Position numbers and translations under genes: made by a program
Notes under the pieces: model-generated
Database searches by the model: none
The model's input: only the letters and a program-made list of their open reading frames with translations
What the model was told of the DNA's origin: nothing
Origin: a phage
Assembly: GCA_016389475.1 (NCBI GenBank)
Contig: GCA_016389475.1_3042.1
Length of the DNA: 64,000 nucleotides
Reading direction: 5' to 3' (one strand)
In this document: positions 12,381 through 15,533 of the stretch, one piece after another
Layout: each line of letters begins with the position of its first letter
How positions within the stretch are numbered: the first letter of the stretch is position 1

Positions 12381-12851
12381 CTAGCGATAAAAACCAAATT
12401 GACGATTAGCTTCAATAATCTTTCTTTCTTCTTCGGACATTCTCCAGCGTAGTCCAACATCAAAATGAGCCCAGACCATCTTAACAAATGCATTTATATC
12501 TTTAATATCTTCAATAATGAATGTTTTACTTTTAGAAGGTTGGCTTGCTAATTTAACCTTATCATCTTCAAACAAATCAAAAAGGCTATATTCATGAGCT
12601 CTTTTATAACCTTTAATTATTAAAGCTTCAGAAGAAGAAAATGGAGAATCAGTATTATGTAGAATATCTTCAGTATGCTTTATCATTAGAATAACATTTT
12701 CTGGATATTTTCTTTCTTTTATATCTTTAATTAAAAAATCCGGATTTTCTGCTAAAGGAATAATTAATGAGCATTTTTTATCAAGTGTATTTACTGATTT
12801 ACCTTCTTTAGACATAAATTCTATTGAATAGAATTTTGCTACTTCAATCAT
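12381..12851 (-). CDS. hypothetical protein (156 aa)
   Basis: ORF track. Confidence 0.55.
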
Positions 12852-13008
12852 GTGTTTTCCTCTTGCCTACTAATGGACCATCAGGAATTTTATTTTCCTG
12901 AATATACTTCTCATTTTCTTCCATCATTTTACTACCAATTTTAAGAAGCAAATCTAAGGCTTCATTTGCTTTAGCCTTGGCCTCTTCTAACGTCATATCT
13001 TTGGTCAT
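12844..13008 (-). CDS. micro-ORF (54 aa), absent from ORF track
   Basis: Hand translation [54 protein letters not shown]; ATGA overlaps on both sides. Confidence 0.35.
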
Positions 13009-13208
13009 GATTTATCACCATAGATGTCTCTCATCAATTTAAGCGCTGAGCGCTCTAATTTCTTTTCTTGCTCAGCTTTAATCATAGATTTCATCCACTC
13101 TTCTGATTCATTCTGCATTTCTTTATTTGCTTGTTCAACCCAGCCATCATCAATATACATTGAGTTTGGTCGATTAAACCATTCAAATATTTTCTTTAGG
13201 ACTTTCAT
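13005..13208 (-). CDS. hypothetical protein (67 aa)
   Basis: ORF track. Confidence 0.5.
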
Positions 13209-13677
13209 TCATTTTACCTAAAACAATAGTAGGAGCATCGTCAAATTTATGAATTTTTAGCAAATTTGGAGTTAATTTATTCCATAAAGAAGTAATAAAA
13301 TATGATAGCGCAATTTCTTCCGCAATTATGAATTTATTTCCCTTATCTCCCTTATCTATTTTCCAGTCATGTACTGAATCATATGAATAGAAGGACAGCG
13401 GTTTATTGTTATAAAATGCTTCACCAACATCAATATAGTTAGATTTAGTAAATGCTTGAATTGACGTAAATGGAGAATTTTGTACAGTTTCAATAATTCC
13501 GATCTTTTTAAGTTTTATTTCAACATCTTCTGGAACTGGCATTGAAATAAAATCTTCTACTAGATACATGCTATTGTCATATCTTTTGTCAATCATTACT
13601 GCTACAGTAATTGGAACATCCTTGACAAACGCCATACTAATACTATTAATAAACATTTCAAACAAAATTGCTTCCAT
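13183..13677 (-). CDS. hypothetical protein (164 aa from ATG)
   Basis: ORF track start is TTG; ATG at 13677 with GAGGA RBS. Confidence 0.5.
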
Positions 13678-13685
13678 AATTTTCC

Positions 13686-14018
13686 TCAATCACAAGATGT
13701 AGATGAACAACTAGAATCACAAGAACTTCCGCATGAATCACTTGCCCATACGTGAACAGGAACATTTGTATCATATGAAGAATTAGAACTTTTAACTTCG
13801 TTAGAAGATGTAGGTACTGACCATCGCCAAGGATTTTTATAATATTCTTGGGCTTCTTCATAAGTCATAGTAACTGCTTCTACTGTTCCATCTCCCATAT
13901 AAACATACTCAACTACAGTTAAAGGAAGGTAGTCATTTGAAATAGGAACTACACCTTCCCCAGGAGTCGTAGAGAAAAAATCCGTAAAGAAACTTTTAAA
14001 CCAATTAAAGATAAACAC
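13686..14018 (-). CDS. hypothetical protein with Cys/Ser-rich C-terminal tail (110 aa)
   Basis: ORF track; C-terminus ...[20 protein letters not shown]. Confidence 0.5.
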
Positions 14019-14224
14019 TACAAAAAACCTCTCTTGAATTCAACTTGCTTCTCGCCATAATCATATCGAATCTCTGCATTAAATTCGACAGAACCATCTG
14101 CGTACATCATAAATGAATGCACAACAACTTCTGTGGACCATGGCTGCAGTTCATATTTCTTCATTACATGTCGTGAAATGATAATATCTAAATCTTCATT
14201 TGGTTTAATCCAACGATTTAACAT
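14018..14224 (-). CDS. hypothetical protein (68 aa)
   Basis: ORF track; first gene downstream of promoter 14251-14280. Confidence 0.5.
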   Translation of the reverse strand: MLNRWIKPNEDLDIIISRHVMKKYELQPWSTEVVVHSFMMYADGSVEFNAEIRYDYGEKQVEFKRGFL

Positions 14225-14250
14225 AGTGCTCTCCTCTATAAGATAATTTT

Positions 14251-14280
14251 ATTATACCATACTCATTTTGGAAAGTAAAC
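14251..14280 (-). promoter_or_regulatory. T4-type early promoter with consensus -10
   Basis: gtaaac 14275-14280, attata (TATAAT) 14251-14256, 18-nt spacer. Confidence 0.6.
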
Positions 14281-14296
14281 CGGTAAAATGAAAAAA

Positions 14297-14314
14297 GGAC
14301 TCCCTAGGGAGTCC
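14297..14314 (-). terminator. intrinsic terminator after soc
   Basis: ggactccc-tagg-gagtcc hairpin followed on minus RNA by UUUUUUCAUUUU. Confidence 0.6.
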
Positions 14315-14322
14315 TTGAATTA

Positions 14323-14559
14323 TTAACCACCTATTTCTGTAGGCGTAAACATTGCAGCATTCTTAGTTTTCCAAGTTGCTGCATCGGAAACTACATCAGA
14401 ATAAGCTGCTTTTTCTGACGGAAAGATTTGATAATGAGAATCTGCAATACGGTGTTCATTTGAATATACATCAAATGCTACAGAAACTTCCATACCTTTA
14501 ACTTCTTTGCCTTCACCTGCTGGATGAGTAAAGGTCTTGATGTTAACGAAACCACCCAT
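14323..14559 (-). CDS. soc: small outer capsid protein Soc
   Basis: ORF track 78 aa; VNIKTF...VSVAF...HYQIFPSEKAAYS matches T4 Soc; AAGGAG RBS. Confidence 0.85.
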   Translation of the reverse strand: MGGFVNIKTFTHPAGEGKEVKGMEVSVAFDVYSNEHRIADSHYQIFPSEKAAYSDVVSDAATWKTKNAAMFTPTEIGG

Positions 14560-14590
14560 AATAAACTCCTTTATTGTTTAATTACAGGTG

Positions 14591-14598
14591 TATTTATA
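14591..14598 (-). promoter_or_regulatory. T4 late promoter TATAAATA upstream of soc
   Basis: plus-strand tatttata = TATAAATA on minus strand, about 30 nt upstream of soc ATG. Confidence 0.55.
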
Positions 14599-14600
14599 AC

Positions 14601-14741
14601 TTACAATTTAGCGGCTTTCCAGAGTTGTTCAATAATCTCTTGGTCTATTTCTTTAGTTATTTCATTACGTAATAAAGCAGTAAGGGCTTTCGCCCTTTTC
14701 TTATTCAACTTTTTGAGTTGACGTTTATTTAAACGAGACAT
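14601..14741 (-). CDS. basic micro-ORF (46 aa), absent from ORF track
   Basis: Hand translation MSRLNKRQLKKLNKKRAKALTALLRNEITKEIDQEIIEQLWKAAKL; start overlaps gene 56 stop. Confidence 0.3.
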   Translation of the reverse strand: MSRLNKRQLKKLNKKRAKALTALLRNEITKEIDQEIIEQLWKAAKL

Positions 14742-15259
14742 TAATAACCTCGGTCCTGACGTGCGAAATTTTCAGCATTTTTCAGGTAATAAAGTTTAAA
14801 GATTTCTTCAGCTGTAAGACCAAGACCCTGGAACATATTCAGAACGAAATGAAGAATATCAATCATTTCAAATTTAATTTCTAACTGGTCTTGCGGAGAC
14901 AAATCAGTAATCAGAGTTTCACGACGCTCACCATGCTGCGACTTCCAAGGTTTCCATACAGCAGATGCGTCTTTTTCACCATTACTCATACCACCAAGAG
15001 AAGTCAGAAGTTCACGGAATTCATCGTCAATATAATCTTTCTGATTACGCAACCAATCAACAACTTCACCGGCAGTAGCCAAGTCATCAGGATGACGATT
15101 ATATTCAGGTTTATCTTTAGCTAAACGAATTTGCAGAGATTTCTGCATGTCAAGCATTACCTGCAGCGGGTCTTTTTCATCACCGAGAATATCCCAATAT
15201 TCATTTTGAGCTTTATCAGCGCCTTCGATCAGTTGACTACATTCGTTGAAATGTGGCAT
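14741..15259 (-). CDS. 56: dCTP/dUTP pyrophosphatase (MazG-like)
   Basis: ORF track 172 aa; size and position match T4 gp56. Confidence 0.85.
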   Translation of the reverse strand: MPHFNECSQLIEGADKAQNEYWDILGDEKDPLQVMLDMQKSLQIRLAKDKPEYNRHPDDLATAGEVVDWLRNQKDYIDDEFRELLTSLGGMSNGEKDASAVWKPWKSQHGERRETLITDLSPQDQLEIKFEMIDILHFVLNMFQGLGLTAEEIFKLYYLKNAENFARQDRGY

Positions 15260-15295
15260 GTTATTTTTCCTTTCAATTCATGGGTTAGTAGATTA

Positions 15296-15320
15296 ATTAT
15301 ACAATAAATATATAAAGCAA
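15296..15320 (-). promoter_or_regulatory. putative MotA-dependent middle promoter for gene 56
   Basis: minus strand reads TTGCTTTA (MotA box), 11-nt gap, TATAAT. Confidence 0.35.
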
Positions 15321-15332
15321 TAAGGAGGACAT

Positions 15333-15533
15333 ATGGTACAAAAATTAATGGCACTTGTTAATGCCATAAAAGGTAATAAAAAACGTATAGCTTTTACTAT
15401 TTCTGCTATGGTAGGAATTTTACTCTGGAACTTTATTCTATCACCTGTTGCAATTGCGCATGGTATTAATATTCCAGTAGTTACTCTTGATACATTTGTA
15501 GATTTAGCATTTGCTTTAGTTGGGTTAATTTAA
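15333..15533 (+). CDS. small hydrophobic protein (66 aa) on the opposite strand
   Basis: ORF track; AAGGAGG RBS 4 nt before ATG; two predicted TM segments; fills the gap between genes 56 and 61; stop overlaps gene 61 stop convergently. Confidence 0.35.
   Translation: MVQKLMALVNAIKGNKKRIAFTISAMVGILLWNFILSPVAIAHGINIPVVTLDTFVDLAFALVGLI

Follow-up and report, generated by a model that had tools for sequence, protein, structure and literature searches.

Genetic context of mrh.1

The gene considered here lies at 13686..14018 on the minus strand of the window, by which we mean the whole 64-kb stretch of phage DNA that was analysed. It encodes 110 amino acids plus a stop, with a GTG start at 14018..14016 and a TGA stop at 13688..13686 in the list of open reading frames (ORFs). 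Residues 3-110 of the product aligned with positions 1-107 of the Pfam profile DUF7206 (PF23836) at a score of 92 bits (gathering cut-off 25.6; E 4.5e-26), the ORF matched phrog_2031 (E 3.9e-35), and an identical coding sequence in Shigella phage Sf23 carries the annotation 'similar to phage T4 Mrh.1'. From the Pfam and PHROG matches and synteny, we identified the ORF as Mrh.1 (DUF7206), by sequence an ortholog of T4 Mrh.1 and a small early protein of T4-like phages. The region 13000-15300 was 99.6% identical to Sf23 and to Escherichia phage EO1, with matches in 810 phage records, and the source phage is, judged from its sequence, a Tequatrovirus. The Sf23 alignment of this region paired 2301 query bases with 2292 record bases; coordinate arithmetic placed the approximately 9 extra bases of the present phage downstream of mrh.1, in or near mrh, which encodes 164 amino acids here and 161 in Sf23.

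The minus-strand gene order is 61 (primase), 56 (dCTPase), a 46-aa ORF, soc, mrh.2, mrh.1, mrh, srh, modA.4, modA.3, modA.2 and modB, and the early cluster 56-soc-(mrh.2)-mrh.1-(mrh)-srh-modA.4 was found in the same order in Sf23 and in 25 related loci. Immediately upstream of mrh.1, the mrh.2 ortholog (14018..14224, minus strand; 68 aa; phrog_1873) ends in a TAG stop that shares one base with the mrh.1 GTG (TAGTG), a GAGG precedes this GTG, and mrh.2 is translationally coupled to mrh.1 in this phage; orthologs carry ATG at the exact codon where mrh.1 here has GTG. A match of Mrh.2 to BrxC (12 bits) was discarded as noise. The downstream gene is the mrh ortholog (13183..13677, minus strand; T4_MRH, E 8.7e-37), the Shine-Dalgarno sequence of which, GAGGAAAA, overlaps the mrh.1 stop codon. 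In most relatives, but not in all, mrh.2 adjoins mrh.1: it was not detected by tblastn (E 1e-3) upstream of mrh.1 in L013, L016, L023, L024 and L026, which are loci of Serratia phage PS2 relatives and other distant phages, and mrh is missing from RB69/JS98-like loci. Therefore, Mrh.1 is the most persistent gene of the cluster.

A consensus scan gave two pattern matches on the minus strand: a terminator-like hairpin after soc (14316..14295) and a sigma-70-type promoter-like site upstream of mrh.2 (14279..14251; TTTACT-17-TATAAT with TG). The promoter-like site is likely to be the start of an early transcription unit containing mrh.1, and its position between soc and mrh.2 fits the 'early' class assigned to the T4 mrh.1 RNA (PMC9697503 supplement).

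Several minor features of the neighbourhood were also recorded. A hairpin at 14682-14697 received a terminator score on both strands. In T4, the interval between soc and 56 is occupied by segF, a homing endonuclease gene (PMC9697503 supplement; bioRxiv 10.1101/2025.11.20.689424 supplement); in its place, positions 14560-14741 of the window hold only the 46-aa ORF (14601..14741), which is rich in Lys and Arg and overlaps the stop region of gene 56. T4 also carries dam between genes 56 and 61 (gene table, bioRxiv 10.1101/2025.11.20.689424 supplement); the corresponding gap here (15260-15533) has no dam and contains a 66-aa plus-strand ORF (15333..15533) that is also present in Sf23, where it is annotated as a predicted membrane protein, and that is convergent with the primase gene, with a 4-nt overlap at its end. 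The annotated name of the modA.3 ortholog (12381-12851) looks like a carried-over PHROG-derived label, or may hint at a distant Mrh paralog.

Protein layout and conservation of the tail

AlphaFold2 was run on Mrh.1 from this phage with a 117-sequence alignment and gave a mean pLDDT of 60. The predicted N-terminal amphipathic helix (residues 3-15; 13974..14012, minus strand, as are all features below) is followed by a conserved PGEGVVPI motif; the hydrophobic moment of the helix ranges over 0.45-0.56 in this phage and over 0.66-0.80 in T4, and K8 and P19 are conserved in the family alignments. A small conserved core (residues 34-61; 13836..13919) is predicted to form a beta-hairpin (strands 34-40 and 46-52) and then a helix (53-61), with pLDDT values of 78-88 over residues 31-60, and the family alignments show E37, Y38, Y40, G42, D43 and G44 to be invariant or nearly so. 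The Ser/Thr/Asn-rich linker (residues 62-90; 13749..13835) is the most variable segment, differing in length even among close relatives, and is predicted to be disordered from about residue 70. The C-terminal tail, W91-D110 (13689..13748), was delimited by sequence and family conservation and has a pLDDT below 50, as do residues 70-106 as a whole. For an RB69-type member (P0014), AlphaFold predicted the same N-terminal elements and two low-confidence helices, with the tail again lacking structure. The Mrh.1 tail is thus predicted to be a flexible, disordered acidic arm.

The sequence-only reading of this DNA had drawn attention to a Cys/Ser-rich tail on the 110-aa product, and this was borne out by the four cysteines of the tail and by its content of S, C, D, G and Y, which amounts to 85% of the last 20 residues. 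No other stop-to-stop ORF of the window, on either strand and with a length of 30 aa or more, reaches a share of 70% for these residues over the same stretch. The cysteines are C96 (codon 13731-13733), C100 (13719-13721), C104 (13707-13709) and C109 (13692-13694), forming CX3CX3CX4C, with none in the first 95 residues; the terminal Asp (13689-13691) completes a C-terminus of TSCD, in which the penultimate residue, C109, is invariant in the family. Lys, Arg and hydrophobic residues are absent from the tail, the net charge of which is -4 to -5, and its serine codons are a mixture (TCA, TCT and AGT) of the TCN and AGY types.

T4 Mrh.1 (T4p027, UniProt P20706) shares approximately 85-90% identity with this copy, is likewise encoded between mrh.2 and mrh, and has the same CX3CX3CX4C tail. 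The present copy differs from it in having a GTG rather than an ATG start, a Ser-rich linker that lacks 3 residues (110 aa in total against 113 in T4) and A92-S93 where T4 has T-G. The remark in the sequence-only reading that such a tail is not expected for a typical early T4 protein was therefore wrong in one sense: mrh.1 is a standard T4 early gene, and T4 carries the same tail.

A single-sequence exhaustive HMMER search returned only 10 matches, and a profile search was needed to reveal the family, which we represent by 116 full-length cluster representatives. All 116 end in [S/G]-C-[D/N] (SCD in 110, GCD in 4, SCN in 1 and GCN in 1), and all of them, like the protein of this phage, contain an additional S-C-D unit upstream. 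At least two Cys were found within the last 30 residues of every representative (two in 112, three in 1 and four in 3), whereas Cys outside the tail occurred in 7 of the 116 only. Ser precedes Cys in 228 of 239 cases and Asp follows it in 223 of 239; across the family the tail is 44% S, 17% D, 16% G and 8% Y, with Cys accounting for 10% of the last 20 residues. The four-Cys arrangement CX3CX3CX4C is confined to the T4 clade, the tail consensus of which is W[AT][SG]DSCGSSCDS[SG]CSSTSCD, whereas almost all other members have two Cys, 4-10 residues apart; the two extra Cys of the T4 clade sit where other lineages have Ser and Tyr. In L026, one Cys lies in the aligned tail motif and the second further upstream. 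The distant members, which include phages of Escherichia, Salmonella, Enterobacter, Serratia and Edwardsiella (for example, JS98, IME08 and PS2), have tails that are variants of W-T-G-D-S-S-Y-S-S-Y-D-S-G-S-C-D-S-S-S-S-S-C-D.

The retrieval profile included the tail and may have biased this set; however, tail-less fragments were also retrieved, so intact tail-less proteins would probably have appeared. With the low-complexity filter, tblastn alignments always ended at residue 92, and the '84% coverage' that they gave results from this filter, not from tail loss.

Nei-Gojobori counting over 21 distinct coding sequences, which gives uncorrected proportions on an imperfect low-complexity alignment, yielded a pN/pS of 0.34 for the tail, the lowest of four segments, against 0.40 for the N-terminus, 0.56 for the core and 0.68, the highest, for the linker. 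Within the T4 clade the tail value was 0.10, with every non-synonymous difference at residues 92-93. Codons of the tail are exchanged (TCA/TCG/TCT/TCC/AGT/AGC, TGT/TGC and GAT/GAC) with the residues unchanged, and synonymous sites are near saturation (pS 0.75), yet the penultimate Cys is never replaced. These comparisons indicate that the tail is under purifying selection and is the selected, functional part of Mrh.1.

A 164-aa variant (Shigella phage Sf24, P0003; 235Ecol030PP) combines a T4-type N-terminal half, an RB69-type middle and the T4-type four-Cys tail; in the Sf24 locus (L034, 447-941) it comprises a T4-type Ser-rich linker and the RB69-type middle segment, MEEIIRQPEKAGNVG...LNSKKLKEHLD...IITVTAVSSW. 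This mosaic pattern points to recombination within mrh.1 between Tequatrovirus alleles and Mosigvirus-like ones, and the presence of the four-Cys tail on such a chimera indicates that the tail was kept through recombination.

The sequence-only reading had also raised the possibility of a frame artefact. Some database copies are indeed frameshifted or truncated (L007, P0005, P0006, P0008, P0009 and CT01), and the last mrh.1 codons overlap the mrh Shine-Dalgarno sequence, so that the tail might be a product of reading frame or annotation, or its conservation might reflect a DNA or RNA signal instead of protein. However, no frameshift falls in the tail, the breaks lying upstream, either in a T-run, as in L007 (GATTTTTTC), or in the YMGDG codons, as in phage CT01 (L035, 447-787), where mrh.1 is split. 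Short contigs (10 kb or less) are the source of most protein-only fragments, P0006 and CT01 being full-length phage genomes, and the split copies may be sequencing errors or real pseudogenes. In addition, residues of the tail are kept through synonymous changes, and conservation of the tail is just as strong at loci where srh instead of mrh follows mrh.1 and the stop is TAA, not TGA; the overlap with the mrh Shine-Dalgarno sequence thus does not explain its conservation. RNA folding of the tail region was no better than that of shuffles (z = +0.9), Rfam gave nothing above threshold for this region, and Tandem Repeats Finder detected no tandem DNA repeat in it. A sub-threshold Rfam match to mir-980 was taken as chance. 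We accordingly give an artefact or nucleic-acid signal almost no credence, and the frame artefact in particular is refuted by the occurrence of the tail in every full-length homolog, by the synonymous changes and by the lowest pN/pS of the gene: across the homologs the tail was conserved in 116 of 116, with neither tail loss nor a frameshift within it.

A separate observation comes from a Mosigvirus-like contig, where an 84-aa ORF (L008, 2820-3074, plus strand of the locus) lies downstream of modA.2, starts MGSMGEMMNWLTN and contains SKSSYSSCQSP. It faintly echoes the N-terminal helix and the Ser/Tyr/Cys composition of Mrh.1, which may be chance.

A similar C-terminus in Privateervirus proteins

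A profile of the tail alone, searched against 5.8 billion proteins, returned one match, a 73-aa protein of Proteus phage 3H10_20 (Grimontviridae, Privateervirus) ending SSYDSGSSDSGGSCD, with an E value of 0.8 that alone is not significant. This search was insensitive and did not recover known family members, so its silence on bacterial proteins means nothing. A tail-pattern scan of IMG/VR produced 91 matches, 90 of which were unconfirmed by tblastn owing to low complexity. Orthologs of the 3H10_20 protein were found in Proteus phages Privateer, J3S and YP1 and in Cronobacter phage 009; each of them has SGGSCD at its C-terminus, and YDSGSSDSGGSCD is common to four of the five. The rest of these proteins diverges to 50-56% identity, and synonymous changes occur inside the tail codons. 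Comparison of Mrh.1 with the Privateervirus family by hhalign aligned the last 13 columns only (probability 84%, E 7e-6), and the Pfam DUF7206 profile scored 19 bits on the Privateervirus protein, below threshold.

The C-terminus of the Privateervirus proteins (3H10_20 gp054 and Cronobacter phage vB_CsaP_009 ORF122), (S/N)YDSGSSDSGGSCD-COOH, is almost the same as that of Mrh.1. In contrast, their N-terminal two thirds are unrelated to Mrh.1 and consist of a basic helix and LSTGLIDDEPF, they have neither the amphipathic helix nor the EYVYMGDG core, their one Cys is the penultimate residue, and the gene, unlike mrh.1, follows the DNA polymerase gene in a 90-kb phage of another family. The tail looks like a portable C-terminal module, the irreducible element of which would be S-C-D-COOH.

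These observations bear on the suggestion of the sequence-only reading that the tail is metal-binding or disulfide-rich, that is, a self-contained intrachain metal site, for Zn, an Fe-S cluster or some soft metal, or else a loop stapled by disulfides, either of which would structure the protein. The thiols are conserved, and the T4 clade has four of them within 14 residues, flanked by Asp. Nevertheless, we regard this explanation as unlikely, because the number of Cys varies from one to four and their spacing from 4 to 10 residues, and because AlphaFold gave the tail no fold in two family members. Almost all proteins outside the T4 clade have two Cys, L026 has one in the aligned motif, and the Privateervirus proteins, which retain the penultimate Cys alone, argue further against a fixed intrachain metal site. 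Zinc ribbons and knuckles have two CxxC-type (C/H) pairs at fixed spacing, whereas Mrh.1 has CX3CX3CX4C in a tail with a pLDDT below 50, and metallothioneins have CxC/CxxC clusters along the protein, whereas Mrh.1 has four Cys in 110 aa and most homologs have two, so Mrh.1 resembles neither class. As for a disulfide staple, cytoplasmic early proteins do not normally keep disulfides. A metal or disulfide role would be possible only if the tail acted in trans or between subunits.

The tail could instead be a plain acidic, Ser-rich docking or solubility element (a short linear motif, or a phospho or nucleic-acid mimic) in which Cys has no chemical role. Its composition, negative charge and predicted disorder are what such an element would have, and aromatic and acidic motifs such as YDSG are also conserved. 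However, only one tail position, that of the penultimate Cys, is invariant throughout the 116 representatives and the Privateervirus family, and it is so although Ser, which dominates its surroundings, is one mutation away; a docking tail of this kind therefore seems to us quite improbable.

Possible roles of the penultimate cysteine

Since 44% of the tail is Ser, since Ser and Cys codons are one mutation apart, and since the penultimate Cys never changes, the cysteines are unlikely to be incidental. We tentatively favour a reading that may hold, in which the flexible acidic arm presents the penultimate thiol and neighbouring carboxylates to a partner in trans; from the conservation pattern we infer both thiol chemistry and action on a partner. 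The S-C-D-COOH tail would present the C109 thiol, together with the adjacent Asp and terminal carboxylates, to a partner, perhaps a metal centre or else a reactive cysteine in a protein of the host or the phage, while the N-terminal helix and the core would serve in anchoring, localisation or oligomerisation. The upstream Cys (one in most lineages, three in the T4 clade) might act as auxiliary or resolving thiols, and the two extra Cys of the T4 clade may add resolving or chelating capacity. Persistence of the tail through recombination and beside different downstream genes, its recurrence in the Privateervirus proteins and the 'Semi-Fit' knock-down score of T4 mrh.1 speak for this reading; the dispensability of the gene in T4 and the absence of Mrh.1 from T4 proteomics speak against it.

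Disordered tails in which one or two near-terminal thiols act as shuttles are known from ribonucleotide reductase (RNR) R1 (Cys754/Cys759), MerA (C-terminal Cys pair) and high-Mr thioredoxin reductase. These tails serve a large catalytic domain of the same protein, whereas Mrh.1 has no catalytic domain. An analogy, which does not imply membership, is offered by DsrC/TusE, in which the penultimate Cys of a flexible C-terminus is strictly conserved, an upstream Cys occurs in a subset only, and the C-terminal arm enters the active site of a partner (PMC3397948). Mrh.1 shares with them the predicted flexible arm and the strict conservation of Cys as its penultimate residue; a second Cys, approximately 10 residues upstream, is found in part of the family. 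However, there is no sequence or fold relationship between the two, and the DsrC-type globular domain (TIGR03342) was not detected in Mrh.1 with Pfam and NCBIfam profiles. Mrh.1 also ends in Asp, not Val, has a Ser/Asp-rich arm and has a globular part of only approximately 30 residues.

A bolder proposal, which we consider rather unlikely, is that S-C-D-COOH is a portable 'thiol warhead' carried on different small proteins of unrelated Enterobacterales phages, which would insert into the active site of one conserved enzyme of the host, either blocking or hijacking it. Possible targets would be a zinc metalloprotease such as FtsH, or a cysteine sulfur or redox relay (IscS/Tus, thioredoxin/glutaredoxin). 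In the FtsH case, the thiol and carboxylate might ligate the metal, aided by a membrane-seeking N-terminal helix. FtsH as a target of Mrh.1 is speculative; it was proposed because the predicted amphipathic helix recalls that of lambda CIII, because the neighbours mrh and srh are sigma-32-related, and because a thiol with a carboxylate is a classic pair of zinc ligands. Sigma-32 is an FtsH substrate. Mrh.1 has no homology to lambda CIII or to Bacillus SpoVM, which are small amphipathic-helix inhibitors of the membrane Zn-protease FtsH; lambda CIII is, like Mrh.1, a small phage early protein with an amphipathic helix (PMC1838920 for CIII; predicted for Mrh.1), but it lacks a Cys tail, and inhibition of FtsH by Mrh.1 is pure hypothesis. 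If true, the thiol warhead would represent a new class of phage-encoded, Cys-dependent host-takeover motif.

Modification of the tail was considered as well, either of the RiPP type (heterocyclisation or thioether formation, as in microcin B17 and SCIFF) or as another change to Cys or Ser. The Gly/Ser/Cys composition resembles that of RiPP core peptides, and the Cronobacter phage protein gave a sub-threshold Pfam match to 'YxzE-like putative bacteriocin' (E 0.11). Against this, no maturase-like gene (YcaO/McbBCD or radical SAM) adjoins mrh.1 at the inspected loci, where the neighbours are always soc, mrh.2, mrh, srh and modA.2-4; Mrh.1 had no match in NCBIfam or PADLOC, and inspection of the sequence revealed no secretion signal. 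We thus hold a modification substrate to be very unlikely. Comparisons with the Ser-rich tails of siderophore microcins, methanobactin cores, glutathione/phytochelatin mimicry and RNR tail mimicry lacked supporting context and were dropped.

The gene itself is already known as the accessory T-even early gene mrh.1, with the identical protein annotated in Sf23; what is new is the description of the tail as a conserved, portable penultimate-cysteine motif. A search of main-text literature found no discussion of Mrh.1, DUF7206 or the tail, the gene appearing only in supplementary tables. DUF7206 thereby gains a sharp, testable signature, an invariant penultimate Cys on a disordered acidic tail. 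Purifying selection on this tail extends across T-even-like phages from seven or more host genera, and the tail recurs on an unrelated protein in another phage family.

In T4, LC-MS proteomics detected Mrh and Mrh.2 but not Mrh.1 (PMC9697503 supplement), which we attribute to the very long tryptic peptides of Mrh.1 (48 and 52 residues in T4, 34 and 53 here). Transposon sequencing of T4 recorded hits in mrh.1 at 31 of 31 TA sites (bioRxiv 10.1101/2025.11.20.689424 supplement), indicating that the gene is non-essential on E. coli K-12. About one in three T4 proteins carries the annotation uncharacterised or hypothetical (PMC9697503). In CRISPRi-ART, translational knock-down of T4 mrh.1 was scored 'Semi-Fit' (0.79, p = 0.069), whereas mrh.2, mrh, srh and soc were 'Not Fit', and mrh.1 was one of five 'Semi-Fit' genes of purely unknown function (PMC11879866 supplement).
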